From a virus (lineage: Duplodnaviria; Caudoviricetes): a DNA stretch of 64,000 bases. How positions within the stretch are numbered: position 1 is the first letter of the stretch; each line of letters starts with the position of its first letter. The notes under the pieces were generated by a model that worked only from the letters and a program-made list of their open reading frames with translations, did not search any database and was not told the origin of the DNA. Shown here one piece after another: positions 1,515-17,249 of the stretch. The translations under genes and the position numbers were made by a program. The DNA lies in IMG/VR virus record IMGVR_UViG_3300024346_000003; one strand, 5' to 3'.

Positions 1515-2717
1515 TTAATAATCAATAGTTAAATTAAACACAACCATATCATCAGATGGTTTATAGTAAGTTCTATTTGTTTTTGCAATCGCAATTAGAT
1601 TGCCAGCATCATCTAACAAACCAATTTCAGTTATTCTTGGTACATCGCTAGTTGAGAATGTTGTGTTAGTACTAACTGTGAATTCGTTTCTATCAGCAAT
1701 ACATGTTACTTTTTGTGAAATTGAACTAATTACTGAATTAAACGTTAAAGTTGTTGCAGAAGATGTTGCACCACTTATTGGGAAATTACTAACAATTGTT
1801 GGTTCTGTGATAACTATAAAACCTTTATCCAAGTATGCAATACCTATTGCTTTATCAGCTACAGTACCAGAACCTGTGTTAGTTTTAAAATTCCAAAGTC
1901 TTTTACCATTAATGGAATATGGTTTAGGTAGTGAGTAACCAGTTGACCAACTTAATAAACTATTATTATTTGGTTTTTGAATTCCATCACTAAATAATAG
2001 ACATCTATTAGGTCCTAATTGTTGTAAGTATCTTGATGGGTCTGTTATTCTACCATCTTGGTCAGTTAACATTGAATTATTATTTTCGTATGTACCATAA
2101 ATGTTATACGATGCTAATGTTGTTGTTAATTGTAAGTTAATACTTTTACCATCAATTAATTCACCATATTGACTACCATCAATACCAATTACCAAAATTT
2201 CTTCTGATGCTAAACCACTTAATGCTGTATCTAAAAATCCACCTGTATTTGATGTAATACCAGTATATGTTTCAGCAGTTCTAGTATCAGTTGGTAACCC
2301 AAATGAGTAAAATAAATTAGTTAATACATCAGTATTATAATCATTTCTATTTATAATATTTTGAGTTAACGTACCACCACTATAATATAAAACGTTATAA
2401 CCTGTTGATTTTTGAGTGCTAGAAATAATTGATGAGGCTAATTGAACTGGTTTTTTGTTTTGACCATTTCTATAAAGTAACCCACTTCTGAATTGATACC
2501 CAGAACCGCCATTATTTAATGACAACCCGAAATTATCACCAGAGAAATCAGGAATTTGACCTGATGTTAATCCACTATAAACATTATAGTTTGCATCTGA
2601 ATCACCCAATATAAAATTAGTAATTAATGAGCTAGCACCATTTGCTAATCTTTGTCTACCGTTAGGTGTTAATTTACCTTTTATATTAATCGTTGTTGCA
2701 CTATTTATAAATCCCAT
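1515..2717 (-). CDS. Tail-collar/baseplate fibre-attachment-like structural protein (DUF3751-like termini)
   Basis: N-terminal KLTPNGRQRL...FILGDSD and C-terminal ITEIGLLDDAGNLIAIAK motifs resemble the tail-collar fibre family; paralogous termini to 2742..4892. Confidence 0.55.
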   Translation of the reverse strand: MGFINSATTINIKGKLTPNGRQRLANGASSLITNFILGDSDANYNVYSGLTSGQIPDFSGDNFGLSLNNGGSGYQFRSGLLYRNGQNKKPVQLASSIISSTQKSTGYNVLYYSGGTLTQNIINRNDYNTDVLTNLFYSFGLPTDTRTAETYTGITSNTGGFLDTALSGLASEEILVIGIDGSQYGELIDGKSINLQLTTTLASYNIYGTYENNNSMLTDQDGRITDPSRYLQQLGPNRCLLFSDGIQKPNNNSLLSWSTGYSLPKPYSINGKRLWNFKTNTGSGTVADKAIGIAYLDKGFIVITEPTIVSNFPISGATSSATTLTFNSVISSISQKVTCIADRNEFTVSTNTTFSTSDVPRITEIGLLDDAGNLIAIAKTNRTYYKPSDDMVVFNLTIDY

Positions 2718-2741
2718 TTTTAATTGTTTTTTTTTTAATTA

Positions 2742-4892
2742 TTAAAAGTCCATTGATAACTCTAGTAATATTGTATTACCTGGTGTTAATTTAACTGGTC
2801 TTGAAAATTTACCAATCATAACTAATTCACCAGAACTATCATATATACCACATTCAGTAACTTTAATTACTGATGGGTTAGTATTTGGGTCTGAACTTCT
2901 AGTTACATTTGATGTATATTTAAATAAATCAGCAGATACACTTAATTTAAATATTGTTTTGTATACATTAGCACCAATATACGTATCGATATTACCATAG
3001 AAGAACCTTTCATCACCAAATTGTAAAATATTTGGATTTGTATTTGGTGCCATACCTAATGAATTTATAATACTAAACGTTGTATCACCAGATGTTGTTG
3101 ATATATCTAATTTAAAGTTTGTTGATGTTGGATTTTGAGTCTCTAATAATATTGGGTCAATCGTTTCACCAGATACACCTGTAATTAATGCGCTTGTAAA
3201 ATCATGAACTTTCCAAGCATTTGGTAATGGTCTTGTCCCACCAGAAACTATTTGATATAATACTTTGAACTCTCTAGCTGAAAAACCTAAACCATCATAA
3301 GCTGGGTCTTCGATTTTTCTCATATAAGGTAATAAGTCAATTCCACTAATTTTAAATTCAACATCTTTTGAAGCGGATGTATTATTAGGTATGATTATAT
3401 ATTTCTGACATGGTAATGTTGTTGTTAAACCACTCAGTGTTGAGTTTTCAAATGTATATGTTAACCACATATATTGTTGGGATGGTAATAATCCAGTTGA
3501 TGTAGATGGTGCAGCTAAACTTGCATTTAAAGCTGGTAGTGTCCAGTTTCTATTTGATTTATAAGATATTGCAGCAACGATTTCATCGTCATGTATTGCA
3601 ATTACTTTTAATTGTGGGAAAACTTTACCAATTACTAATGGTGTTGCACCACTAGGTATCAAAGTAACATCTTCAATTAAATCTATATATTCAATATCTG
3701 TATTTGTAATATATTTTGTTGAACCACTAGCCAGGAAAGTCATACCCATAGTTGTCCCACTACCAGTTGGGTAGTCTCTTCTATGGTACATCAAATCTGG
3801 CATATAAACATTTACATTTTTACCGTTTGCACCATCAACGAATAAGAATTCACCGTAGAAATTTGAAATGGTATTATTTGTATAATGAATAACTGATATT
3901 GATTTACTAACTGTATCTAATACGGAAGTACCTGGTACATCACAAATATCAATTGTAATACCACTAGCACCTACTGAACAACTATAATCAAAGTATGGGT
4001 ATTTTTGTCCTAAATATTTCCAAGAACCAAACTTTTCATAACTTTCATTAGGTGTTGATAGTGTACTATTAATACTACTACCCGTCATACCAGCTAGGTT
4101 TTCACACCAAATATTATTCATATTCCAAACTGGAACATCAGCACATGATACATAACAACAACTATCAAATGATAATGTATTTGAATTCCAATAAGGTATT
4201 GTTGATGATGAACCAAATGCACTATAAACTTCACCTTGTGGATAAATAATAAAACATGTTGTTGCTGAAAATGAATTTAAGTTTGGTAACTCTCTATCTA
4301 CTATAACATAACTTGAACCACTTGCTTGTATTTTATACCAAAGTGTTGGTATTGGTAATGTATTACCAGTTACTCCTAAATTACCAATAGTATCGTTAGT
4401 TAATTTTAATAAAATATAATCACCAACACTATATGTAAATCCAGTACCTATTTCTAATGTTGTACCACCAGTAAGGTTTACGTTACTAATACAACCATTA
4501 TCAACCGTATATGTTGTACTTAACAATGTACTAAATTCAGTATGTGTTGTGTTAGCACTAAAGAACCCTCTTTCAGCTGCTTTATTATTCACAATAGCTT
4601 TTAATGTGTTTATTTGACTAGCTGTCAATGGATTTGTTGGTGTAACACCGTCAACACTAACAAATGAACTTAAGTTTGGTTGTCTATCAACTGGTCTAAG
4701 TATCATACTAGTTCCAGATAATTCTGGGTCGGTTTGATAGTTATCTACTATCGATTCTCTGTTGTAATTTAACTCAGAATCACCAATACCCCAAGCGGTA
4801 AAGTTTAATTTACCCTCGGCTAATTTTCTTCTACCTGTGTCTGTTAATTTTATGTTTACAAATGCACCTGAATTGTTAATTATGTAGCTCAT
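2742..4892 (-). CDS. Tail-collar/baseplate fibre-attachment-like structural protein, paralog of 1515..2717
   Basis: N-terminal KLTDTGRRKL...WGIGDSE and C-terminal VTECGIYDSSGELVMIGK; S/T/G-rich, beta-rich middle region. Confidence 0.55.
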   Translation of the reverse strand: MSYIINNSGAFVNIKLTDTGRRKLAEGKLNFTAWGIGDSELNYNRESIVDNYQTDPELSGTSMILRPVDRQPNLSSFVSVDGVTPTNPLTASQINTLKAIVNNKAAERGFFSANTTHTEFSTLLSTTYTVDNGCISNVNLTGGTTLEIGTGFTYSVGDYILLKLTNDTIGNLGVTGNTLPIPTLWYKIQASGSSYVIVDRELPNLNSFSATTCFIIYPQGEVYSAFGSSSTIPYWNSNTLSFDSCCYVSCADVPVWNMNNIWCENLAGMTGSSINSTLSTPNESYEKFGSWKYLGQKYPYFDYSCSVGASGITIDICDVPGTSVLDTVSKSISVIHYTNNTISNFYGEFLFVDGANGKNVNVYMPDLMYHRRDYPTGSGTTMGMTFLASGSTKYITNTDIEYIDLIEDVTLIPSGATPLVIGKVFPQLKVIAIHDDEIVAAISYKSNRNWTLPALNASLAAPSTSTGLLPSQQYMWLTYTFENSTLSGLTTTLPCQKYIIIPNNTSASKDVEFKISGIDLLPYMRKIEDPAYDGLGFSAREFKVLYQIVSGGTRPLPNAWKVHDFTSALITGVSGETIDPILLETQNPTSTNFKLDISTTSGDTTFSIINSLGMAPNTNPNILQFGDERFFYGNIDTYIGANVYKTIFKLSVSADLFKYTSNVTRSSDPNTNPSVIKVTECGIYDSSGELVMIGKFSRPVKLTPGNTILLELSMDF

Positions 4893-4950
4893 ATTTTATA
4901 AATATCTTTATTTCTTTTTATTTTAATAATAAATACACCAAAGTAAATAA

Positions 4951-6426
4951 TTAGTAAGATTTAGTTGAATTAATCCCTAATGTTATTGGTATGATTTCAC
5001 TATATTTTATACTTTTAACAACACTATTACATAATGTGTTATATTGTTTCTCGTTTTTAATTCTATAATAAAAATTATCACCATAATCACCACTCAATGG
5101 TATTGTTGCGTAATAATTAAGTTCACCAACTGCATACTTAGTGGTAGCACTTGAGGTTATAATATTAAATGTTGATGCTGAAGAAACTTCAACAACAAAA
5201 ATACCACCAGTATTTGTTGGTGGTGTTGATATTGACCATGATATTGTTGGTACTGGTGTTGTTATATCACCAACTAAATTTGTAAATCCATTATAGTAAA
5301 CATTAATAATATCACCAACTACTAAACCACCTTCTAATATGATTCTTTTTAAATCAGATGTTGATTGGTAATAATCAATATTATTAGCTAATATGGCCCC
5401 ATTGACAGTTATCATTATGTCATTAGAATCAATCGGTGTTGTATCAACAAAGATTTCATACTTACTAGTAGTTGTATTATAATAAACACTATTAGAACCT
5501 TGATTACCAGTTGTACCACTTGGAATTGGTGATGATATATCAATAATTTTATTTATAATTTCATTTGAACTACCTATTGAGACATATGTTACTGTTAAAA
5601 TGTCACCCGATTGTGCTGGTGATACCAGTTGTATTATAGTAGTTGTCACTGACCCACTAGTTAATGTTGTTACAGTATAATCATAAAAATTAGCTAATGT
5701 AAGTCCATTTAATGCAACAATATATGTTTGAAATGTGTCCGCAACAATTATTTGCGTTTGGTTTTTAGTTAATTCAATTGAACTAACCATAAAAGCACCA
5801 ACGGGTAATGGTGTATTTGTACCTTGACCAATTTGTGGTATTTCAGCTTCTTTAAGTGATACAAAATAAAAATCTCGGTCAGATTGGTATATAGCATATT
5901 CATCACTAGTGATATATCTTTGTGTATCATATTGTTCATTTAATAAAGTACCAAATTCGGTTGCAATATTATTAACATAATGACCTTTAACTATATAATC
6001 ACCATCTAAGTTGATTGATGCTATTGGTATTGTTTGAGTTGTTGCACTTGTTGCACTGAAAGATGACCATTCAATAAGTTCTGATGTATATATCGCATTA
6101 ACACTAAACCCAGATAGATTAGTATTATATTTATGTACAGTGTATTTAAATTTTGATTGATTTAAATCAGTAAATGATTGTGTATTTGCTGTAAATATAA
6201 AATCAAATGTAACACCAGTTTGTGATGATATGATGTAAACCCCAGTATCACCACTAGTTAAACCACTATTTGGTGGTGTGGTGCAATCAACCTTTGTTGA
6301 CCCTGTTATATCATAATAAGGTCTGTTAAAAACATAAAAATCAGAGCTCATATTGACTGAGTGTACAGTTTGATTTCTTTCTGGACAAAATCCACATTGA
6401 CCATATATTCTTTCTTGGTAACTCAT
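4951..6426 (-). CDS. Putative virion structural protein with repeated beta-sandwich-like modules
   Basis: 491 aa, T/S-rich. Internal repeats VALNGLTLANFYDY / ITVNGAILANNIDY and GDILTVTY / GDIINVYY. Lies in the baseplate cluster. Confidence 0.5.
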   Translation of the reverse strand: MSYQERIYGQCGFCPERNQTVHSVNMSSDFYVFNRPYYDITGSTKVDCTTPPNSGLTSGDTGVYIISSQTGVTFDFIFTANTQSFTDLNQSKFKYTVHKYNTNLSGFSVNAIYTSELIEWSSFSATSATTQTIPIASINLDGDYIVKGHYVNNIATEFGTLLNEQYDTQRYITSDEYAIYQSDRDFYFVSLKEAEIPQIGQGTNTPLPVGAFMVSSIELTKNQTQIIVADTFQTYIVALNGLTLANFYDYTVTTLTSGSVTTTIIQLVSPAQSGDILTVTYVSIGSSNEIINKIIDISSPIPSGTTGNQGSNSVYYNTTTSKYEIFVDTTPIDSNDIMITVNGAILANNIDYYQSTSDLKRIILEGGLVVGDIINVYYNGFTNLVGDITTPVPTISWSISTPPTNTGGIFVVEVSSASTFNIITSSATTKYAVGELNYYATIPLSGDYGDNFYYRIKNEKQYNTLCNSVVKSIKYSEIIPITLGINSTKSY

Positions 6427-6674
6427 TAATATGAAATATTCAATTCTTTAAATGTATTGTTATTATTAACTATTAAACCATAATTAACATTAGTTGTTAA
6501 ATTTTCAGTACTAATTACTTTAGAAAAATTAAAAACAAAAGCTTCAAATCCAGGAGCTTCAATATGATTACAAGTTGTATCATACACTGATGTTGAAACA
6601 CCCTGTATCCCTATTAAACTATCTGATATTGGTTCAGTTAGTGTTGCATTTATATTTTGTATTAATATCGACAT
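6426..6674 (-). CDS. Small hypothetical (structural-cluster) protein
   Basis: 82 aa; TATTTATA motif 3 nt before the ATG; stop overlaps the next start. Confidence 0.55.
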   Translation of the reverse strand: MSILIQNINATLTEPISDSLIGIQGVSTSVYDTTCNHIEAPGFEAFVFNFSKVISTENLTTNVNYGLIVNNNNTFKELNISY

Positions 6675-6686
6675 ACTTATAAATAG

Positions 6687-9563
6687 TTATATATGGTTAT
6701 TATTATTTCGATATATGAATAATCTACTTATTTCACAATTAAATTCTGGTTCTGTAACTATAACTATAGGTACAACATCCCAATTCGGTAAGTCTAGTGG
6801 TGGGATACTTGTTGTTTGACTATAATTTGTATAATAACCAGAACATGGTGTTGCTAGTGGGTCCATTGAGGCTAATGGTATAGTCCAATCTAATCTAATT
6901 GTATTAGTATCTAATTTTATAACTGATATAGTGATACCATCCATATTGTTACCATATGGTATAACATCATAATTATATTCCGTTGTTACTGGTACAAATG
7001 ATGTGTCTGTTATTTTTAATGTTTGACTAAAAATTCGATTAATTGAATCCCAAGTTTGATTAAATGCATTACAACCAGGTACTGTTATTAAACTCATGTA
7101 TAATGGTACTTCTCCAATCATTAAATTATCTTCACAGTATGCTTGATATTCTTCATCACCAATTATTCTACCTATAAATTCTGAATCACAATAATTAGTC
7201 ATTGTCCACACGCAATCACAATAGGTATATTGATTACAGCTAAAGAAATTAGTACTATCAAAAGGTGTTGAACCACTTGCTGGTGGGGTGTCACTTGATA
7301 AATCGACTTTAATTACTTGTGTGTTACAATCACTACTGATTGCTGAAAACGGAAAATAAGGTGATGGGTTTTCACATAACCATAATGTATTGCTTTTATA
7401 TGCATATTTTTGAGTATCAAAAACACTATTTCTATAAATAAATGTAGAACCCCAAATAGTTGTGGCTGGTACAAACTGTTCAATTAAATCAACCCAATAA
7501 TCACCAACTAATTGTGATATATTTTGCATTGAATCATAATTATATCCATTACTAATGCCGTTACAAAGTGTATTACTTAAATACCTTTCATATAATAACC
7601 TAAGTAATGGATACGCTGTAATACTTTGTCTAGTTTTCGCATCTATTAATTCACTATATACTATTCTTTCAAATTCTTCAACAGTATTAACTTCGGATAA
7701 TGGTGTCATTAGTTTTGAGCTGATATCAGTATAATCACCACCACAATATCCAGATAAACTTATACTACTACCTGTATAATCAAGTACACATGGGTTATTA
7801 TATGCATACTTAAATACATCACCCTCAATTGCTTTAGCTGGGTCAATATTTAAATCAATTTCCTTTGTGTTAATAGCTAACCTATGGTCATTGATTGGGT
7901 ATTCAGTATTTCTCCAATCTAATAGATGTAATCTTTTCTCTGGTAATTCATTCGATACCCAAGATTTCTTATTGTCAACAAATTTTTCAAGTTCAAACCC
8001 AAAAGGTTTTGATATTTTAATAAAGGTATTATCAATTGATTCACAATTTTGTGTTACCTTTATTTTATCTAATAAAAGTGCAAAATCTAAACAACATGTA
8101 TTAACCTTGATGCTAATTCTTATCTTTTTATTTTTTATCTGTTCAATAACCGCTGGGTCATTGATTGTTACACCATAGCTTAGCCAAGCTGAATTATACC
8201 AACCACCCATTAATTGTAATAACTCAGTATTTTCTAAATTATTTTCTGGGGCACCAAAATTTGGTAAATATTCTGTTAAATATAATTGTCTTATAAATTC
8301 ATCACGTTTAGATTTGCAAATCTCATCATAAGTACATGTTGTTTCAACTGAAAAACCTGGTAAAACACCAGTTTCACCACTAATTATAATACCTGTTAAC
8401 CCACCACTATCAATTATGTATTGCATTAGATTACCCTCACCAATACCAAATATTTGTTCTTCATATACGGTTTCATATAACATTGGTGTGTCAGTTTCAA
8501 CATCTAACGAGAAAGAAGCTGTAAAGTTCTCTAAATTAGCAATAGGGTCATTACATAAAACACCTTCAGTTTCTAAATTTGCTAATTCATTTTGTAAATC
8601 TCCAAGTTGAGTTTGTAATTCAGCAATTATATCTAAACATGCTTGGTATTCACCACAAACACTTAACATTTCTTCATATGCATTTTGCTTATCACAAATA
8701 CCATCACTTGTTTCTGAAAAATAAGGATTTGGTGAATTGGTTTCTAAAGCAATGTTGTTACCGTCTGTATATAAAGTTTGTGATTGTTGATTAGTATAAA
8801 TCGTTGTATCGCAACCATTCGATGCTAACCAAGCATTATACTTAACATCTCCTAATATCGCTTGCCAGGCTATTAAACCTTCTTCAGTTAAACAACATAC
8901 TGTTGGACGTGACGGTAGGGCTAACATATCACCTGAAAGTGGTGTTGATACGCTAGTTGTACCATCTGGAGTTCTAAGTCGTGTTACTGAATTATAATAT
9001 GGATTCGCATCATAATCAGATACGTGGTTAGTGACTAGTATTGTATAACACATAGCAGTATAAATACTATTGTATTCAAAACATGCACCACTTAATGCTG
9101 CACATTCAAGTTGAGTACTTTCTATTTGGTTATTTATACTTTCAATATCACTTTCTATTGCTATTGCATTTTCATTTATCGTTTCACCACTTGCTAGAAT
9201 TGAACAGTCGAATTTAAATGTATAATCTAATGTGATATCTAATGAACACTCTGAATTTTCATTAACAGTAAAATAATCACCATCATCACCATTTGGGTTA
9301 ATAACGATTTTCATTTCACATGTGTCACATGTGACTGGGTCACTCCATAAACATTTTTGATTTTCAATATCAAAGACATACCCTAAGTATTCACAACATA
9401 TTTTAGTATTTGCATTGTTGTATGGTACCAAGCCAGAATCAGTATTAATCCATACCGAAACAGACCCATCTAATTGATGCATTATTTCCCCACCACCATT
9501 AACTATTTCATCAGCAGTTAAACATGGGTTGTCTATTGTTGGTTGGCACTTATAAGTTTCCAT
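6687..9563 (-). CDS. Cys-rich putative virion protein with coiled-coil segments
   Basis: 958-aa intact ORF with many Cys and heptad-like acidic helices (IESDIESINNQIESTQLE; IAELQTQLGDLQNELANLE). Confidence 0.5.
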   Translation of the reverse strand: METYKCQPTIDNPCLTADEIVNGGGEIMHQLDGSVSVWINTDSGLVPYNNANTKICCEYLGYVFDIENQKCLWSDPVTCDTCEMKIVINPNGDDGDYFTVNENSECSLDITLDYTFKFDCSILASGETINENAIAIESDIESINNQIESTQLECAALSGACFEYNSIYTAMCYTILVTNHVSDYDANPYYNSVTRLRTPDGTTSVSTPLSGDMLALPSRPTVCCLTEEGLIAWQAILGDVKYNAWLASNGCDTTIYTNQQSQTLYTDGNNIALETNSPNPYFSETSDGICDKQNAYEEMLSVCGEYQACLDIIAELQTQLGDLQNELANLETEGVLCNDPIANLENFTASFSLDVETDTPMLYETVYEEQIFGIGEGNLMQYIIDSGGLTGIIISGETGVLPGFSVETTCTYDEICKSKRDEFIRQLYLTEYLPNFGAPENNLENTELLQLMGGWYNSAWLSYGVTINDPAVIEQIKNKKIRISIKVNTCCLDFALLLDKIKVTQNCESIDNTFIKISKPFGFELEKFVDNKKSWVSNELPEKRLHLLDWRNTEYPINDHRLAINTKEIDLNIDPAKAIEGDVFKYAYNNPCVLDYTGSSISLSGYCGGDYTDISSKLMTPLSEVNTVEEFERIVYSELIDAKTRQSITAYPLLRLLYERYLSNTLCNGISNGYNYDSMQNISQLVGDYWVDLIEQFVPATTIWGSTFIYRNSVFDTQKYAYKSNTLWLCENPSPYFPFSAISSDCNTQVIKVDLSSDTPPASGSTPFDSTNFFSCNQYTYCDCVWTMTNYCDSEFIGRIIGDEEYQAYCEDNLMIGEVPLYMSLITVPGCNAFNQTWDSINRIFSQTLKITDTSFVPVTTEYNYDVIPYGNNMDGITISVIKLDTNTIRLDWTIPLASMDPLATPCSGYYTNYSQTTSIPPLDLPNWDVVPIVIVTEPEFNCEISRLFIYRNNNNHI

Positions 9564-9636
9564 TCATATATCCTTTATTATAATTATTCAATCTTTCAAT
9601 TATTCATTAATATAATCTATTTTTTTTTAAAATAAA

Positions 9637-12600
9637 TTAAACAGTTGCAATATATGTAGCATTTGTACTAGCCTTACAACCTTTTGAGTCAGTTACTGTT
9701 AATTTAATTTCAAAAGTACCATTTGTTAAATTAACCGTTGTTGCATTTATTGGTCCAATTTGTGGCGCTGCTGATGTATTACTAGTTAAAAATCCATAAT
9801 TAGAATATTTACCAGTTTGTGTTATAATTTCCCATAAATAAGCATATGGTCCTACACCATTTGATATTTGTGGTACTGAAACATTTATATCACTAACTTT
9901 AGTTACTATTCTAGGTATTGGTCCTAATGATATATTACATAATGGTGCTGGATTTGTTCCTGTACACCCAATTAAGCCAATAGATTTTTGATAAAATAAT
10001 TGATATAATAAGCTATTATTTGTTCCGTAAGTTGCATTTGCTTGAGCCAATGTTAATACCGCTTTACCTGTAGCTGTTAATCTACAAGCATATCCAATTT
10101 TATTTGTATATGGGTCTAAAATACTTTGGGGTATTGTATAGTTTAGTGGACAAAAACATGAATCTGATTGAACAGTAACTCTATATTGTGGTGTTCCAGT
10201 TGTTCCCCAGTTATTTTGTGGTGTTACAAATTTCAAATACATTTCATTATTTGTTGTATACATCTGACCTAATAATGGTCCAGCCAATCGCCATTGACAA
10301 CCTATATAACAACCACAACCCTTACCCCTATAAGCTGGTACGGTTGAATCACCTTTAATCGATGATTCTGCTGATACTTGAACCGTTGGTGATAATACTA
10401 GTGTTTTTGGTGTTGCTGGTGTTGCTGGTGTTGTAAAACCAAAGTTTGTAAATGTTGCGTGAGTTCCTGTTGGTATTGGTGTTGGGTTAATAGTTGGGGC
10501 TTTGCAGCAAATATAACCACTATTTGATAGTGTTGGTTTACCAGTTGTTGAGTTAATAATGTATTCATCATATAAATATGATGCACCGTTAACTATATTA
10601 TTACAACAAGTTGGTGATATAAATGGTGAAACGTAATATTGACTATTTAATGAACCATCAACATTATATGTTAAATAATTCCAATTAAAGACATATGGTG
10701 TATTATAGAAATTAGTATTTGTACTATCAACATATGTATAACCACTAATTCTTATACTACAATTATTAAATTGCTCAGCTTCTGTTAATTCATCTCGTTT
10801 AATATCAATAATTAATGATAAATCTTCAGTTGGTAAATCACAACCACAATCAGTTAATTCCGCTGTTGGGTGTGGGTCACTTATTATATCAGCAACATAT
10901 AAGAAACAATCATCTAATGTAACACCAGAATATGTTTCAATACCCACATAGGTATCACCACTATAATTGTTTATTAAACCATTATTATAATTTGTAAACA
11001 ACTCAACTACACTTGTTGTAAATGTTGATGTTGTTAACACAGTTGGTTGAAAATCAGGTAATAAACTTCTAAATTGGTTTATATATTCAACACCACCATC
11101 ATAAGGTCCGATGTGTGGGTTATTACCTTGATTGATTTGAGTCGCAGCATTTGCCCCACCAGTTTCTCTATACCATAAACCACCTTTTTGAAAATACATT
11201 GTTGGTGTGTCAGCTATTGTTTTTGGGAATCCGTCTGAATCAACATTATAAGATATTAAATCAGTATCATAATTATTTTCTAATAATACTGATTCAAATG
11301 AATCAATATCTATTTTATTTTTTGCGGCATATATATACTCATTCAAGTTTATTAAACCTTCTGGAGCACCAATAAATTTAAATAAGAATTCAACAGCTTT
11401 TCTAGTCCCTTTAGATTTGAATAACCAAGCTGAGTTTAATATAAGTCTTCTCCATAATTCAATTTCAGCCTCAGCTGCTGTTAAACCACGACTATAACCA
11501 GAATAAGATGGTGCTGGTACATTTAAATATGCTTTTAATAAATCATTTTCAATAACTGAACTAGTTAATTGCCAACCCATAACTCTGGCAATATATTTAA
11601 TCATTTGGTCAGGTGCATTGTTTTTCTTATCATAACTAACATTATTAGCATATGCAATACCATCTATATATTTTTTAACTTCATCAAATTCTCTACCGTA
11701 TATTTTTAATGTTTTGTTCATTTTTTGACCAGAAGTTTCTTCTTCAGTACCATCACATCTAGGTATGGTATCAAAATTTGAAATTGATTCACTCACTAAA
11801 AATCTGCTCATTAAGTCTGAATGTGTTTCATCTGTTGATATACAAATTTTTAATAATTCATTTACATAATTTACATATGCATTTGTACTAAAATCTAAAT
11901 TATAACCGTCACTTGTCGGCCAAACTACACTTGTGCTAGTATTATATATAAGTCCAGTATCAGTTAAATATTGATAATCAAACGTTGATTTGTATTTGGG
12001 TGTTGTTAATCTATTTAATAAATAATCTTCAAATGGTTCTAAACCCGCAAAGAATTTTTCACCTTCAGTATTATTTGGTTTTATATGATATGTTATATAT
12101 TGTGGTTGATTAACCGCTGTTGGGAATGGGTTACCATTAACAAGAATCATTACATAATCATCATACAAATTTGTTGAGCCAGTAAAATTTAATATTCGAT
12201 ATTCCTCATTATTATATAAAATGTTATAACTACTATAATTTACAACTAAATTTCTTAATTCATTACCATATGTGTTTAATAATATACCACCAGTGTTGTA
12301 TATAACATCATAATTATTAGCGAATGTATTAGTTTTAACTTTAAAATTAGAGGTGTTATTATAGAAATTATAAGTATAGTTTTCAATAGTGTATACCCCA
12401 TCATATGTTTGATTATCTATAGGTTTGACATGTATAGATGCTGGCCACTTTGTAATTATGGATTCTAATGTGACTCTCATGAATTCAGTTGATGACCCAA
12501 AATATGCAAAATTTGATAATTTTGTATTATCAATATTTAACTTGATATTAACATTTGCACTAAATACTAAATCAATAACTTCTGATGTTCCACCAATACT

Positions 12601-12828
12601 ATCTAACGTAAGGAAATCACTATAAGGTTTACTAGGGTAATTAATAACATCCCTACCTTCGGTATTTTTTGTTATAGCAAAATTACCATATGTGAATAAT
12701 GCGGTATTACTATCACTAGTAATTTGATTCCCCACTAAATCTGGTGTAAAATTTCTATATTCTATACCATTATTGTAAAAAACTCTTTGGGCATACCCAA
12801 CTACTTTTATTTTATCGTTTTCAGCCAT
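9637..12828 (-). CDS. Baseplate wedge protein (gp7/P2 gpI-like) with Cys-rich region and C-terminal SprB/Ig-like module
   Basis: WRRLILNSAWLFKSKGTRKAVEFLFKFIG resembles the P2 gpI/gp7 motif. C-terminus has GVGPYAYLW...FEIKLTVTDSKGC. Confidence 0.6.
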   Translation of the reverse strand: MAENDKIKVVGYAQRVFYNNGIEYRNFTPDLVGNQITSDSNTALFTYGNFAITKNTEGRDVINYPSKPYSDFLTLDSIGGTSEVIDLVFSANVNIKLNIDNTKLSNFAYFGSSTEFMRVTLESIITKWPASIHVKPIDNQTYDGVYTIENYTYNFYNNTSNFKVKTNTFANNYDVIYNTGGILLNTYGNELRNLVVNYSSYNILYNNEEYRILNFTGSTNLYDDYVMILVNGNPFPTAVNQPQYITYHIKPNNTEGEKFFAGLEPFEDYLLNRLTTPKYKSTFDYQYLTDTGLIYNTSTSVVWPTSDGYNLDFSTNAYVNYVNELLKICISTDETHSDLMSRFLVSESISNFDTIPRCDGTEEETSGQKMNKTLKIYGREFDEVKKYIDGIAYANNVSYDKKNNAPDQMIKYIARVMGWQLTSSVIENDLLKAYLNVPAPSYSGYSRGLTAAEAEIELWRRLILNSAWLFKSKGTRKAVEFLFKFIGAPEGLINLNEYIYAAKNKIDIDSFESVLLENNYDTDLISYNVDSDGFPKTIADTPTMYFQKGGLWYRETGGANAATQINQGNNPHIGPYDGGVEYINQFRSLLPDFQPTVLTTSTFTTSVVELFTNYNNGLINNYSGDTYVGIETYSGVTLDDCFLYVADIISDPHPTAELTDCGCDLPTEDLSLIIDIKRDELTEAEQFNNCSIRISGYTYVDSTNTNFYNTPYVFNWNYLTYNVDGSLNSQYYVSPFISPTCCNNIVNGASYLYDEYIINSTTGKPTLSNSGYICCKAPTINPTPIPTGTHATFTNFGFTTPATPATPKTLVLSPTVQVSAESSIKGDSTVPAYRGKGCGCYIGCQWRLAGPLLGQMYTTNNEMYLKFVTPQNNWGTTGTPQYRVTVQSDSCFCPLNYTIPQSILDPYTNKIGYACRLTATGKAVLTLAQANATYGTNNSLLYQLFYQKSIGLIGCTGTNPAPLCNISLGPIPRIVTKVSDINVSVPQISNGVGPYAYLWEIITQTGKYSNYGFLTSNTSAAPQIGPINATTVNLTNGTFEIKLTVTDSKGCKASTNATYIATV

Positions 12829-12836
12829 TTCTATAA

Positions 12837-13748
12837 TTAAACATTACTAATATCATTAAAAACTTTGGTGAAATCAATATTCACTTTTTGTTCTTTAATT
12901 TCATACAACGGTTTACCTGTAAATCTATCTTTAATCTCATAAAGATTGTATTGTTTATAAATATCATTATTAAAATTATATAATGTATAAACTCCATCTT
13001 CAAGCGATTTACTTTGATTTCCAAATAGACCAATAGCTAATGTTTCTATATCATGTTCAACAACTTCAACTTCCAATACAAATGGATTAAAATAAGTATT
13101 GGTTATTATAATTTCTTGATTTGGTTGACCTATAAATGGGAATACATTCGGTGTAACGTTCGATTCTGAACTAGGTGATACAGTACAAAAAACTAATGTT
13201 GAATTGTCATTAAATCTATATCTAATTGCTTTTTGATTAGCATTTGTTAAATTTTGGTTGACTGGTTCAGCTCTATTGTTTGAGGTAACAACTCTAAAGA
13301 AATTTCTAAGTTTTAAATCAGTAGAACTTGGATTTGGTGTTAGATATTCAATTCTATAACCAGCTAAATTATTATTTTCAAATTTATCAGCAAATGCTGA
13401 AATAGCTGGGTCGGAACCATCAAGTACAATACCTTTTATATCTGGTGATGATGATAATACACCACAATCCACAATTGTTGTTCTTATTTCAACTGGTTTT
13501 ATTGCAATTGTATAAATACCTACAGCACCAAAATCACCAAGTGGTAATTTTAATGTATATAACCCGCCAAAAATTTCAAAACCAATACCAGTTTTATTTG
13601 GGTTGTCTATTTGAATTAAATTAGAAGATGCTAATTTAAAACTTCTAGTAGTTTGTATATTCCTATTTGGTGAGTAGAAAACTGTAATTTCTACATCACT
13701 AGGGTTAACGTCTGCTGGTCTAACTATACCGTATGCTCCTGTTGCCAT
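12837..13748 (-). CDS. Hypothetical protein, baseplate/tail cluster
   Basis: 303-aa ORF tightly packed in the structural operon; no recognisable catalytic motif. Confidence 0.5.
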   Translation of the reverse strand: MATGAYGIVRPADVNPSDVEITVFYSPNRNIQTTRSFKLASSNLIQIDNPNKTGIGFEIFGGLYTLKLPLGDFGAVGIYTIAIKPVEIRTTIVDCGVLSSSPDIKGIVLDGSDPAISAFADKFENNNLAGYRIEYLTPNPSSTDLKLRNFFRVVTSNNRAEPVNQNLTNANQKAIRYRFNDNSTLVFCTVSPSSESNVTPNVFPFIGQPNQEIIITNTYFNPFVLEVEVVEHDIETLAIGLFGNQSKSLEDGVYTLYNFNNDIYKQYNLYEIKDRFTGKPLYEIKEQKVNIDFTKVFNDISNV

Positions 13749-13754
13749 GTCTTT

Positions 13755-14621
13755 TTATGTTAATATATTATAATATCCGTTTCCGTAATTTATTAGGTCA
13801 CCCAACGATGATACTTCACCCAATTGTAAATGGCTTTGTATTACTGTTGTTGCACCTCTATCTATAAATAGTTCGTTTTGTACTTTTGGTGTCTCTGTTA
13901 TATGTAATAAATATTCTTCAATAGTCAATGCTGATAAACTAGAATTAGTTTTATTAGTACCTTGACCATGATAATACATCTGGGTTATTGGTATTTCGTT
14001 AATATTATCAAGTCTTGTGCTACCTGAATAAGTTTTAAATAAAATACCATCACCCTGTAATGTTGTACCCAAATTTGGGTCATTTAATTTAGCATCCTCA
14101 GTATAAATTATTGGGTTGAAGTCATTTAAACTAATAACTCTAGTTATTCCACTTACCATTGAATTAACATAGTTAAAATAAATACCTTTTTCTAAATCAA
14201 AACCTGGTATATATTTAGTATTACCAGTATAACCATAACTACTAACATTTTCTAACCTATCTTCAGTTAATCCAGTTACAATTATATTATTAGTAAAATA
14301 ATCTGAAACAATTCTGTTTTTATATCTAACATCACTAAAATTAGTACCACTTGGGAAAAAGTTTGCTCCTTGTTGAGTGATAAAGTTAAAATTACCACCA
14401 CCGTAATAATTTAATTTTTCTGGTATTGGTGCGTAAGTTAATGTTGATGCATTTTTATCAAAAGTAATATATGGAAAATCCATAAACTTACCAATATCTT
14501 TAAGTTCTTGCGTTAAAAATATATTAACGTTAAAAGATGTTGCAGTTATTGAACCATAACCGCTATCTGGATTTTTACTAATATAATCTTCTAATAATAT
14601 TTTTATTTTTTTAGTTTCCAT
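13755..14621 (-). CDS. Hypothetical structural protein
   Basis: 288 aa; start overlaps the upstream stop; four [ST]GxT motifs. Confidence 0.5.
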   Translation of the reverse strand: METKKIKILLEDYISKNPDSGYGSITATSFNVNIFLTQELKDIGKFMDFPYITFDKNASTLTYAPIPEKLNYYGGGNFNFITQQGANFFPSGTNFSDVRYKNRIVSDYFTNNIIVTGLTEDRLENVSSYGYTGNTKYIPGFDLEKGIYFNYVNSMVSGITRVISLNDFNPIIYTEDAKLNDPNLGTTLQGDGILFKTYSGSTRLDNINEIPITQMYYHGQGTNKTNSSLSALTIEEYLLHITETPKVQNELFIDRGATTVIQSHLQLGEVSSLGDLINYGNGYYNILT

Positions 14622-15481
14622 TAAATTGCAGTTATTTGGTATAAATCAATTATATAATCGTTAGATATAACCTGAACATTTGTTGAGTAATTAGTATCTA
14701 TCTCATAATAATGTTGACCATTATTTGTTTTTAATATATATTTTGTAAAAATATTATTTGTCGAATTTTGACTAGTAGATACTAAATTGTCAATAGTTGT
14801 TGTTGTACTACTTGTTGACATTAAACCAACCGTTTTACCATTTTTAGCATTATTAAATTCAGCTCGCATATATAATTCTTTAGGTGCATCAACTGTGACT
14901 TCATCTTTAAAGTTATATATAAAAAATCCTTCACCATTTAGACTTCTATTTGCTATTGAATTACCTAAAATAAATTGAGTTTTTAAATTATTAACGGGTG
15001 TAATTGTACCCCATGGTGTTAAACCACCAGTTGAATAATCACTTGGGTTTATCTTAGTGAATAATGTTATAAATGATATTAAACGCTGTGTTATTGGTGA
15101 ATCACTATCATAAAAATTTAATCTTAAAAATGTTTTAGTAAAAGCTTTTTTTCTAAATTTAATATCAAAATTATCAAAACCAATATCACCAAAATAACTA
15201 GATGGGTTAAATTGATTACTGCTAGTTAAAAAATGAACCTTGTATATAATATTATCAATAAATGACATTGAGTCACCATTTAATGTTACTGGGTTAAATC
15301 TAACTTTATCATAATCTAAAATAGTATTTATACTTTTTTGTATTTCAGCATTAACGAATTTAGTTTGAATTATCTCATCTTGGTCAACCAATTGGTACGT
15401 CATATTTACAGGTATACTAATGGTTGCACCAGTAGTTGTTGCAAATTTAGTAAAATTTATAGTATATTTATTAACAGACAT
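14621..15481 (-). CDS. Hypothetical structural protein (start revised from 15526 to 15481/15484)
   Basis: ATG-ATG at 15484/15481 (MSVNKY) overlaps the end of the upstream gene, consistent with translational coupling. Confidence 0.5.
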   Translation of the reverse strand: MSVNKYTINFTKFATTTGATISIPVNMTYQLVDQDEIIQTKFVNAEIQKSINTILDYDKVRFNPVTLNGDSMSFIDNIIYKVHFLTSSNQFNPSSYFGDIGFDNFDIKFRKKAFTKTFLRLNFYDSDSPITQRLISFITLFTKINPSDYSTGGLTPWGTITPVNNLKTQFILGNSIANRSLNGEGFFIYNFKDEVTVDAPKELYMRAEFNNAKNGKTVGLMSTSSTTTTIDNLVSTSQNSTNNIFTKYILKTNNGQHYYEIDTNYSTNVQVISNDYIIDLYQITAI

Positions 15482-17249
15482 CATCAGCTTGTTTAGTAGT
15501 AAAGTTATTTTGAATACCGTCACCATTTACATCATATGGGTAATCCTCATTGAATTGTAAACCGAAGAATCCAAATGGGTCTTGTCTTCTAGTATAAATA
15601 CATAAGTTTTGATACATATAGTGACAACCATTTAAAAATGGGTAATTAACAGTTTCTTCTTGACCATCATTAACACCTATAGGTAATAAATCTCGCCAAA
15701 GGTATCTACCATCGCCTAAATTTTCAGCATATTCTGGAATACCAACAACACTTTCATCACCTTGTTCAACATAATTGGAGTATTCTTTAATTTTAATTTT
15801 ATAATGTGGATAATAAATATAACCTTCATTTCTAGGTCCTTTTAAAAGTCCACCATCAATTGGTTTTGAAGTTGTAGCTTCTCTATCAACAGTATTGAAT
15901 CTATGCATAATATTGATTAATGGTGTTTCTTTAGCTTCATATTTACTATATTCACAAATATCACCATAATAATCTTGATTTGTTATATTAACATCATTTT
16001 CCACTGGGGTTTGACTTTCAAATGGTGCCAATGGTAATGAACTTGTATGCATTTTTCTAATATTACTTACCTTCCTACCATCAACGGTATTTGTAATTAC
16101 ATTACCTGATTTATTTTCTAAATCAAAACCAGATATTGTTTTAGTGAAAATAGTTCCAGATTTAGTTTTAACCATCGTTAAATATAATTCACTTAATGGT
16201 CTACCTAGGTTATCTGCTAAATCACTTATATCAATATCATCATTAAACGTTATTTGGTAATTTTGGTCATTATATATGTTTTGACTAAATGCTAATGGAT
16301 ATGATTCATAACTATCTTGAGTTAATTCAGTTTGAGAATCGAAAGCTTTAATCTTTTTAAATTTTCTTAAATAATAAGTTACCTCTTTACCATAGTATAA
16401 CCTTTTCATTCTACCATCTGTAAACGTAATCCCAACAACAGCGGTGGTTGGGTCTATTTCAACAACAAAAAATGTTTCTTTACTGTCACCATTATCTAAC
16501 CCTAGTGCTATAACATTAAAGTCACCATTCATACTAATAGTTGGCATATTAGTTAACCTAACTGTGTCACCAACTATTAAGTTGTGTGGTACTGCTGAAC
16601 CTAAAGCTACCATACCAACACCACCCATATCTCGAACTTCAGCACTTGTGATTAATAACCCATTTTTAACTAAATGATGTTGATTATTTGAAGCATATGG
16701 GTAAGTAATTGTGAATTCCCAATTTCTAATATCATTATAACTATTTAGGTCAAATCGATGTCTAGTTGGTTCCATATCATAGAATGAACAAAAACCAAAT
16801 GTTTTAATATCTGGATTATAAAACCCAAACCAACCATCAATTTCCTTTAAATGCTTTTCAAGTGATTGTCTATATGTTAAATCATTAGCACCAACAAAAT
16901 CATTATCTAATGGGTCAGATTTAAATATATAACCATCAAACGTTTGATAACCATATGATTTATCATAACTAATACCATTTGTAACACCAAACGAGGATGG
17001 TCCTTTGTCACCACTAATGTTAAACAATACATTACTAAATATTGGTGATAGTGTATTTACTATTCTATACCTAGTTGAAACTTGTCTTTCACCATCAAAA
17101 ATATCACCGACATTAACTATTCGATTTATTTTACCTGGTGGTAATAATTTAATTTCAGATTCTAAATTAACATTAAAATACCCGTCAACATTAGCTGCAC
17201 CTTGAAACTTTGTTTTATTTAATCTATATTTTACTCGTCCTATCGCCAT
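15471..17249 (-). CDS. Hypothetical structural protein
   Basis: 592 aa, coupled to its neighbours; the segment HNLIVGDTVRL resembles a beta-barrel module of phage tail proteins. Confidence 0.5.
   Translation of the reverse strand: MAIGRVKYRLNKTKFQGAANVDGYFNVNLESEIKLLPPGKINRIVNVGDIFDGERQVSTRYRIVNTLSPIFSNVLFNISGDKGPSSFGVTNGISYDKSYGYQTFDGYIFKSDPLDNDFVGANDLTYRQSLEKHLKEIDGWFGFYNPDIKTFGFCSFYDMEPTRHRFDLNSYNDIRNWEFTITYPYASNNQHHLVKNGLLITSAEVRDMGGVGMVALGSAVPHNLIVGDTVRLTNMPTISMNGDFNVIALGLDNGDSKETFFVVEIDPTTAVVGITFTDGRMKRLYYGKEVTYYLRKFKKIKAFDSQTELTQDSYESYPLAFSQNIYNDQNYQITFNDDIDISDLADNLGRPLSELYLTMVKTKSGTIFTKTISGFDLENKSGNVITNTVDGRKVSNIRKMHTSSLPLAPFESQTPVENDVNITNQDYYGDICEYSKYEAKETPLINIMHRFNTVDREATTSKPIDGGLLKGPRNEGYIYYPHYKIKIKEYSNYVEQGDESVVGIPEYAENLGDGRYLWRDLLPIGVNDGQEETVNYPFLNGCHYMYQNLCIYTRRQDPFGFFGLQFNEDYPYDVNGDGIQNNFTTKQADDVC

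Follow-up and report, generated by a model that had tools for sequence, protein, structure and literature searches.

In Escherichia coli, Aah and TibC are cytoplasmic O-glycosyltransferases that act on the beta-rich surface proteins AIDA-I and TibA, and the reference family to which they belong comprises the bacterial autotransporter heptosyltransferases (TIGR04414; PDB 4rap and 4rb4). For Aah, the acceptor hydroxyl lies where a loop begins between two strands (strand-loop-strand), and no consensus acceptor sequence was found (PMC3835316). TibC was reported to modify Ser and not Thr, and heptosylation of TibA has been mapped to Ser-313, within N-S-G-G-A (PMC4358343). Among phages, mycobacteriophages decorate their own virion proteins by means of phage-encoded glycosyltransferases (Freeman et al. 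2023, as described in PMC12619734), and the glycans are placed there on the C-termini of capsid and tail-tube subunits.

Two homologues of Aah and TibC are encoded by the phage studied here, and its virion proteins carry a motif, [S/T]-G-x-T, in which the hydroxyl residue (position 0) precedes Gly, as does Ser-313 of TibA. The window, by which we mean the whole 64,000-nucleotide stretch of DNA that was analysed, is part of a 109-kb viral record (IMGVR_UViG_3300024346_000003) estimated to be 31% complete. The motif-bearing proteins and neighboring glycosylation genes are given below, with fractions denoting the [ST]G dipeptides that have Thr two residues after Gly, termed Thr(+3).

1515..2717, minus strand: 400-aa tail-fibre-like protein with weak PHROG tail-fibre matches; 4 of 14
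2742..4892, minus strand: 716-aa distal tail protein, conserved and of no known family; the densest carrier, 11 of 21
4951..6426, minus strand: 491-aa protein of FN3/Ig-like beta-sandwich domains; 5 of 12
6687..9563, minus strand: 958-aa Cys-rich (37 Cys) tail protein; 3 of 12
9637..12828, minus strand: 1063-aa tail protein; 4 of 16
13755..14621, minus strand: 288-aa tail protein; 4 of 6 (p=0.001)
14621..15526, minus strand: 301-aa protein; 1 of 2, too few to inform alone
56283..59117, minus strand: tail sheath, 944 aa; 4 of 12
59468..60997, minus strand: 509-aa YadA-head-like fibre adjoining the glycosyltransferase island; 8 of 31
61087..64215, plus strand: 1042-aa polyprotein (GT4-like, FkbM methyltransferase, DXD sugar-binding GT), the first 971 codons of which lie inside the window (61087..64000)
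64212..65360 (window numbering), just past the window end: TibC/Aah-type heptosyltransferase

Also just past the window end are genes for a second FkbM methyltransferase and a DUF6165 protein.

In this phage and throughout its clade, outward-facing tail proteins carry the conserved four-residue motif at four to five times the chance level. Within the nine proteins encoded in 1515..17249, [ST]-G-x-T was seen 32 times versus approximately 7 expected (z ~10); with the nine ORFs pooled, Thr lies two residues after Gly in 32 of 90 [ST]G dipeptides, compared to 9.0 expected from the Thr content (p=7e-11), a 3.6-fold excess. The original prediction had proposed, from hand counts, that the motif is a candidate glycosylation sequon enriched in otherwise unrelated virion proteins and not in replication enzymes. 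Those counts were reproduced for 1515..2717, 2742..4892, 4951..6426, 9637..12828, and 13755..14621, and for NrdA, NrdB, DnaB helicase, and the RecA-like protein taken together (1 of 16), while the sheath, given as 4 of 11, was recounted as 4 of 12. The remaining proteins of the 109-kb record were near expectation (13 of 191 versus 11.6). Matches to S-G-H-T in 43628..48970 were set aside as a WD40 consensus element, which we take them to be.

The enrichment withstood comparison with composition-matched shuffles, whether global or within blocks of 40, 20, or 12 residues. Each gave approximately 7 versus the 32 observed, with expectations from 6.6 (global) to 7.5 (12-residue blocks) and a maximum of 17 in 1000 shuffles. 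Because even the 12-residue blocks returned this value, local composition does not account for the excess, and a composition artefact was discarded. An unguided scan of approximately 48,000 gapped tripeptide patterns ranked S-G-x-T first (22 versus 3.06, Poisson p=2e-12), and the second-ranked pattern reached only p=6e-5, which rules out cherry-picking of the motif. A signal at the level of DNA was likewise eliminated, as the DNA pattern is confined to the coding frame (26 of 27 sense-strand matches). The signal is thus one of protein, and it requires Ser or Thr at position 0, since neither [ND]-G-x-T (6 versus 6.6 expected) nor hydrophobic-G-x-T (13 versus 12) was enriched. Thr occupies position 0 in ~45% of the sites, about as often as Ser, and there is almost no flanking preference around the motif.

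Known sequons were not enriched in the tail proteins. This was found for N-x-S/T, and for the Bacteroidota O-glycosylation sequon D-[ST]-[AILVMT], which is likewise short and hydroxyl-centred and derives from the presumed host phylum, but which occurred 15 times versus 20.3 expected, in keeping with the earlier assertion that the phage motif differs from that of the host. The general O-glycosylation pathway of Bacteroidota works outside the cytoplasm, whereas inspection of the N-termini of the motif proteins revealed no signal-peptide-like segments that could act in export.

The motif is confined to outer parts, namely the distal tail, the fibres, and the outer domains of the sheath. The sheath sites at 208, 212, 540, and 567 all fall in extra domains outside the conserved core (about 657-941). 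The inner tail is devoid of the motif: Thr(+3) followed none of the [ST]G dipeptides of the 1453-aa protein at the gp7 position (0 of 16), the 2283-aa protein (0 of 25), the tape measure (0 of 13), or the tail tube (0 of 2), and the hub held no motif sites. This distribution also departs from that in mycobacteriophages, as here the tube is free of the motif and the sites are internal to distal tail, fibre, and outer sheath proteins; the record holds no capsid gene. The carriers are not paralogs. All-against-all BLAST revealed only one similarity, that between the first 60 residues of the 1515..2717 product and those of the neighboring 2742..4892 product, and hhalign detected no profile-profile similarity between the two carrier families tested (probability 0.3%), by which hidden paralogy or a shared domain was ruled out. 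The assertion that the enrichment spans unrelated virion proteins is thereby upheld.

The motif is common to an entire clade of large aquatic phages (270-380 kb), whose hosts are probably Bacteroidota. Five complete relatives, when pooled, contained 96 S-G-x-T versus 16 expected (p=1e-41) and 83 T-G-x-T versus 19, and their enrichment equals or exceeds that of the window phage. In the complete relative G002, 15 of 363 ORFs were enriched, of which 14 lie by synteny in tail, sheath, or fibre blocks and one, 2532..3938, could not be so placed; the rest of that genome had 55 sites versus 47 expected. In the relatives the motif recurs in fibres of varied length and context, often non-repeat and sometimes in tandem (SGLT-SGDT). 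Outside the clade, the baseplate and fibres of phage T4 had 13 sites versus 9.2 expected, and the tail module of Flavobacterium phage immuto, a cultured myovirus, had 30 versus 20.3, though it is rich in [ST]G. As this excess is weak (1.4-1.5 fold), a generic turn preference accounts for approximately 1.4-fold, not for 3.6-fold. No cultured phage with the 716-aa protein was found among 50,697 phage records.

The original prediction had named the polyprotein at 61087..>64000 as a possible modifying enzyme. The phage genome does encode enzymes of a suitable kind, with two genes of the TibC/Aah family, one of them above the curated cut-off of TIGR04414 (200 bits): that at 64212..65360 scored 292.9 bits, and that at 84285..85334 scored 180.9 bits. 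The former matched TibC (4rap) with E=3e-56, the catalytic Asp and the four iron-finger Cys residues being aligned. These enzymes, the polyprotein (61087..64215) and/or the heptosyltransferase, might read the motif as a sequon and thus shield the virion, and in favor of this are the position of their genes among the fibre genes, the preservation of catalytic residues in the heptosyltransferase, and the mapped TibA site, where Ser opens a loop and precedes Gly (PMC4358343, PMC3835316). Against it, the TibC/Aah-type heptosyltransferase is absent from the five complete relatives, and the polyprotein had no match in three of them, the other two giving weak matches at the level of domains only. All five are equally or more enriched, and so the enzymes are not needed for the motif; the enrichment is independent of both, unlike what would be expected by analogy with Aah and TibC. 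Further, the E. coli substrates have no Thr(+3) excess, as AIDA-I (9 of 68) and a TibA-like autotransporter (3 of 52) are at the level of composition, with S-G-G dominating. The sharp phage tetrapeptide differs from the Aah acceptor, for which there is no consensus (PMC3835316), and the frequent Thr at position 0 differs from the Ser modified by TibC (PMC4358343). Site turnover is not elevated. As a cause of the enrichment these enzymes are largely refuted, and we regard such a role as very unlikely. The TibC/Aah-type enzymes and the polyprotein are, at most, accessories that this sub-lineage has added, and their more probable substrates are the adjoining YadA-like and collagen-like fibres.

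A different type of glycosyltransferase does accompany the motif. A GT2-like glycosyltransferase of the PF13712 (Pfam) type is present in all six complete relatives, so that co-occurrence with glycosyltransferase genes, while failing for the heptosyltransferase and polyprotein, is found for this gene; GT2-type genes occur in every relative tested, and the sample includes no relative free of them. In G002 an island of GT2 and sugar-modifying genes lies beside a motif-rich fibre operon. The clade-wide enzyme has no NCBIfam match, no match to it was found in the partial record of the window phage, and its target could be DNA or something else.

We then considered the conservation and predicted structure of the sites. 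Among 121 homologues of the 716-aa protein, residues 141, 150, 378, 389, and 487 are kept as [S/T]-G-x-T, and the family has approximately 7 conserved sites at which Ser and Thr are interchangeable, Gly is invariant, and Thr(+3) is retained in 88-95%. The excess in this family stems from these conserved sites, with sporadic gains at the chance rate. An uncorrected count had given 56 alignment columns versus 25 in the control, but the apparent elevation of turnover was lost upon merging neighboring columns and normalizing for residue frequency; a fast-changing shield was therefore not seen in this family. In the 491-aa protein, a tandem SGLT-SGDT pair occurs together with an invariant S303-G304. 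The AF2 model of the 716-aa protein (pLDDT 77), whose fold had no PDB match at E<=0.001, places the motif sites in coil beside strands. In the two AF2 models, all 16 sites are predicted in loops or at strand ends, and at this level of secondary structure only some of them fall between two strands; several match the strand-loop-strand pattern, the hydroxyl residue opening the loop. The modelled contexts vary, including coil, hairpin, isolated bridge, and tandem pairs. In some fibres the motif simply belongs to a structural repeat, either one of 34 aa or, in the 509-aa fibre, a YadA-like repeat of 14 residues (..A-S-G-x-T-S-H-A-E-G..).

These data bear on the possibility that the motif is an unmodified structural turn, a favored loop or hairpin element reused in the beta-rich outer tail proteins of this clade and read by no enzyme. 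In such a turn the hydroxyl side chain would cap the turn, the Gly would be left-handed, and the Thr would open the next strand. An example is found in ubiquitin, whose T-G-K-T hairpin, part of T-L-T-G-K-T, illustrates with the shaft repeats of adenovirus Gly-centred turns in tight beta-hairpins and fibrous viral proteins. The phage motif resembles these in having a Gly-centred turn with Ser/Thr flanks that recurs in beta-rich fibres. The invariant Gly and the conserved Thr(+3) at old sites also suit such a structural role. The absence of extra gains, the loops beside strands at every modelled site, the tight two-residue hairpin predicted at site 41 of the 491-aa protein, the repeats in which the motif is plainly an element, the weak excess of like kind in T4 and immuto, and the lack of a link to the heptosyltransferase and polyprotein all point in the same direction. 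The turn nonetheless leaves the clade-specific 3.6-fold excess unexplained. Asn and Asp, the usual residues before a turn Gly and tolerated in the generic hairpin motif, are uncoupled to Thr(+3), whereas the phage motif requires Ser or Thr and is missing from the T4 and immuto tails. Nor does a turn explain why inner tail proteins rich in [ST]G lack the motif, why its contexts vary with so little flanking preference, or why it recurs across families without detectable homology, as the ubiquitin and adenovirus turns belong to one fold or repeat family and the phage motif occurs in unrelated, mostly non-repetitive proteins. We consider the unmodified turn quite possible, and close in standing to the interpretation that we prefer.

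That preferred interpretation, which we hold tentatively, is that a modification shared by the clade, most plausibly O-glycosylation, uses the motif as its acceptor tag. What was observed comprises the enrichment, its specificity and conservation, its distribution over proteins and genomes, and the gene content; modification of the sites, a sugar as its nature, and the enzyme responsible are inferred. The motif may be a tag for sugar attachment, which sequence data alone cannot prove. In its favor, the enrichment passes every control and tops the unguided scan both here and in the five complete relatives, a hydroxyl residue is required at position 0, the excess is clade-specific and limited to outer parts, the motif recurs in unrelated families, and at conserved sites Ser and Thr interchange before an invariant Gly. 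Several of the predicted loop positions fit the Aah rule (PMC3835316), and glycosylation genes are present. Counting against it are the failure of the enrichment to follow the heptosyltransferase and polyprotein, the lack of Thr(+3) excess in AIDA-I and the TibA-like protein, the reported restriction of TibC to Ser, the chance rate of site gain in the 716-aa family, and the location of the motif inside structural repeats in some fibres.

As an acceptor tag, [S/T]-G-x-T would be a short linear element under selection on the outward-facing tail proteins of the whole clade, carried by distal baseplate and fibre proteins and by outer sheath domains. Its most likely use would be to provide a loop that accepts O-linked sugar in the cytoplasm, ahead of assembly; the hydroxyl residue would open this loop, which contains Gly and adjoins a beta-strand, following the strand-loop-strand rule of Aah/TibC. 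The enzyme would have to be clade-wide, and the sole candidate seen is the PF13712-type glycosyltransferase. More doubtful is the fuller proposal that the clade reads a sequon, hydrophobic-[S/T]-G-x-T, by means of this conserved enzyme, sugar-coating only the outward tail, fibre, and sheath surfaces, with TibC/Aah-type heptosyltransferases added by this sub-lineage. Overall, the interpretation given in the original prediction is partly supported.

A tag for something other than sugar, such as another post-translational modification, docking of an assembly factor, or contact with host polysaccharide, would share with the acceptor tag the specificity of the motif and its restriction to the clade and to outer proteins. 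In the tail module, however, no candidate kinase, ligase, or chaperone was found. Thr-Gln ester-bond domains, suggested by two weak fold matches, were rejected, as the motif-bearing tail proteins lack the signature H-x-D-x-x-D-x-x-Q and contain very little His. We find such a tag improbable.

Should the motif be an attachment site, it would provide a sequence rule predicting the sugar-coated parts of the virions of uncultured phages, with consequences for host recognition, for how virions resist proteases and grazers, and for the reading of phage surfaces in the environment, and the orphan glycosyltransferases of large aquatic phages would become testable. The sequon reading, if true, would provide for the first time a glycosylation code of a phage virion that is defined by sequence. 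If the motif is only a structural turn, it would still be useful for marking the clade, and it would warn against believing sequon-like enrichments on phage tails ahead of chemistry. Under either reading the enzyme link proposed earlier fails.

At the codon level, Ser AGT and Thr ACT are preferred before Gly, and this preference is covered by a genome-wide habit of T-ending codons before GGN.

The window comes from a large, uncultured phage whose whole record, 109 kb, is estimated to be 31% complete. Every gene between 1 and 61 kb is on the minus strand. The main features are listed here, with counts given as [ST]G dipeptides having Thr two residues after Gly (the [ST]-G-x-T motif) over all [ST]G dipeptides.

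Minus strand: T4-like replication block (NrdA, NrdB, DnaB-type helicase, FEN-type exonuclease, RecA/UvsX-like, gp32-like)
Minus strand: contractile-tail block (sheath, tube, hub, tape measure, gp6-like wedge)
1515..17249, minus strand: run of proteins without Pfam or PHROG family, downstream of the wedge gene
2742..4892: motif-rich, 11/21
13755..14621: motif-rich, 4/6
4951..6426: motif-rich, 5/12
1515..2717, 6687..9563 and 9637..12828: motif-rich, less clearly
From 61087: glycosyltransferase island

Within the nine open reading frames of 1515..17249, Thr was found two residues after Gly in 32 of the 90 [ST]G dipeptides, where Thr content predicts 9.0 (p=7e-11). The enrichment survived comparison with composition-matched shuffles, as whole-protein shuffles yielded 6.6 motif copies, and shuffles within 12-residue blocks, which keep local composition, yielded 7.5 with a maximum of 17 in 1000 shuffles (z ~10). 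The hand counts of the original prediction were all reproduced apart from that of the sheath, which changed from 4/11 to 4/12. As a guard against a motif picked post hoc, all gapped tripeptides in six spacing patterns (~48,000) were scored in a blind scan, which S-G-x-T topped (22 vs 3.06, p=2e-12), the second-best pattern having p=6e-5. The matching DNA pattern was confined to the coding frame (26 of 27 sense-strand matches), and the preference for AGT/ACT before Gly is an instance of a genome-wide rule that T-ending codons precede GGN. Across the whole record and in all gene classes, Ser/Thr codons ending in T before GGN far exceed those ending in A (TCA, ACA). Paralogy of the carrier proteins was rejected by BLAST, and no profile-profile similarity was detected between the two best-sampled carrier families. 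The otherwise unrelated neighbours 1515-2717 and 2742-4892 are 41% identical over their first 60 residues, which may be a shared attachment domain.

The coupling to Thr at +3 existed only when the first residue was Ser or Thr; neither [ND]-G-x-T (6 vs 6.6) nor hydrophobic-G-x-T (13 vs 12) was enriched. The flanks showed near-zero preference, save for a mildly hydrophobic residue preceding the motif. The motif differs, as had been proposed, from the host-type sequon D-[ST]-[AILMVT], which is not enriched in these proteins; nor is N-x-[ST], and their N-termini show on inspection no export signals. The hydroxyl requirement argues for a recognition tag, most plausibly for O-glycosylation by a clade-wide enzyme, and this is the reading we tentatively favor; a tag of another kind is unlikely. 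Alternatively, and with almost equal likelihood, the motif may be an unmodified structural turn, a reading that draws on a weak effect of a generic kind seen in other phages: the control T4 baseplate and fibre proteins had 13 vs 9.2, and the tail module of the cultured Flavobacterium myovirus immuto, though very rich in [ST]G, had 30 vs 20.3.

Over the whole record, Thr occupied +3 in 80 of 204 [ST]G in the tail/fibre set, and elsewhere in 13 of 191 vs 11.6 expected. The replication enzymes, predicted to be motif-poor, were all so despite many [ST]G. Three fibre proteins past the window end are motif-rich (20/56, 8/23 and 16/30), and in two of them many sites fall within a 34-residue tandem repeat or YadA-head-type 14-residue repeats; membership in such obvious structural repeats favors the turn. 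The 34-residue repeat is common to L001:803-3001 (94077..96275) and L001:7535-11431, on a piece of the record beyond the window, and has three T-G-x-T units per copy (spacing 15, 11, 8); in the latter, larger fibre the YadA-head-type repeats follow. All four sheath sites fall outside the conserved core, and the tube and hub are motif-poor. Despite many [ST]G, the motif was absent from the tape measure (0/13), a 2283-aa protein (0/25) and the 1453-aa protein after the wedge (17251-21612; 0/16). The last has SprB-repeat and Hoc/Ig-like matches and differs significantly from its neighbours, so exposed-type domains do not always carry the motif. Two collagen-like proteins with long (G-T-S)n runs, L002:1801-3396 (73682..75277) and L002:3548-8521 (68557..73530), have 91 and 125 [ST]G with no Thr excess at +3; both adjoin the glycosyltransferase island. 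In 43628-48970, four of six matches are S-G-H-T or S-G-D-T within WD40 repeats; these are part of the WD40 consensus and separate from the phenomenon.

The 716-aa protein of 2742..4892 has at least 1497 metagenomic homologues (55-92% identity), and motif counts in 121 homologues were 4-14 (mean 8.6). Five sites are retained in the family, with Ser/Thr often near 50:50, Gly invariant or near-invariant and Thr at 88-95%. With neighbouring alignment columns merged, sporadic new sites appeared at the rate of control motifs, and the excess therefore derives from ~7 retained sites and not from faster gain. Invariant Gly and sites that are conserved instead of shifting are what a structural turn would give. 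A viral-contig search revealed 539 related loci. In five related phages lacking a gene of the TibC/Aah type, a bacterial autotransporter heptosyltransferase family (G002, G003, G004, G006 and G008; 345-380 kb, three with terminal repeats), syntenic tail blocks held 28-58 motif copies vs 7-16 expected, and the blind scan again gave S-G-x-T (96 vs 16, p=1e-41) and T-G-x-T (83 vs 19) as top patterns. Many of these sites are in fibres unlike those of the window in length and sequence context, and in non-repeat contexts. Across the 353-kb genome of G002, 15 of 363 ORFs were enriched. Synteny with the window assigns 14 of these to blocks of tail, sheath or fibre genes (2532..3938 was not placed); the remaining ORFs had 55 vs 47.

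The window's phage encodes two TibC/Aah-family proteins, one of them above the curated cut-off and keeping the catalytic Asp and four iron-finger Cys of TibC. The second gene (180.9 bits, slightly below the cut-off) is directly upstream of L001:7535-11431. G001 was alone among the tested complete or near-complete genomes in having a TibC/Aah-type gene; the lack of one in the five enriched relatives runs counter to co-occurrence of this gene type with enrichment. The multi-domain polyprotein at 61087, originally proposed as a candidate for the responsible enzyme, had no match in G002, G003 or G006, its matches in G004 and G008 were only weak and at domain level, and it does not track the motif. 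Since neither enzyme type follows the motif, the enzyme-specific version is very improbable, and this independence from locus enzymes again suits a turn. None of the enriched relatives lacks glycosyltransferases altogether: the TibC/Aah type is missing, and GT2-type genes are present in all five. One of those in the G002 island, encoding a putative 372-aa PF13712-type glycosyltransferase (46-69% identity), is kept in six of six complete genomes, the window's own 31%-complete record not being among them. In G002 the GT2 island and a motif-rich fibre operon are divergently oriented.

L088:7444-19728 and L089:376-1494 (G002), minus strand: three GT2-type genes, GFO/IDH/MocA oxidoreductase, hexapeptide acyltransferase, PhoH, sigma-70-like

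A mapped site in TibA is Ser-313 in N-S-G-G-A, and TibC was reported to modify Ser and not Thr (PMC4358343). In AIDA-I and a TibA-like autotransporter, whose genes neighbour aah-like genes on E. coli plasmids, S-G-G occurs often, yet Thr is not enriched at +3, unlike in the phage motif.

AF2 models were obtained for 2742..4892 (pLDDT 77) and 4951..6426 (pLDDT 80), the latter having FN3/Ig-like sandwiches (VIA-align, Z 8-10). The proposed mapping of sites on structures placed all 16 of 16 in loops or at strand ends; at this level of secondary structure only, [ST]G without Thr was likewise in loops, and a loop location thus fails to separate a tag from a turn. Some sites fit a strand-loop-strand arrangement in which the hydroxyl residue opens the loop, a tight two-residue hairpin holds another, others are found in longer stretches of coil, and two are arranged in tandem. 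These varied structural contexts are consistent with the recognition tag. So are the clade specificity, the confinement to outer proteins, the reappearance of the motif both in mutually unrelated families of this genome and in the variable fibres of related phages, and the fact that protein-glycosylating enzymes are present. The 958-aa tail protein of 6687-9563 has 37 cysteines and that of 9637..12828 has 19, numbers unusual for virion parts assembled in the cytoplasm.
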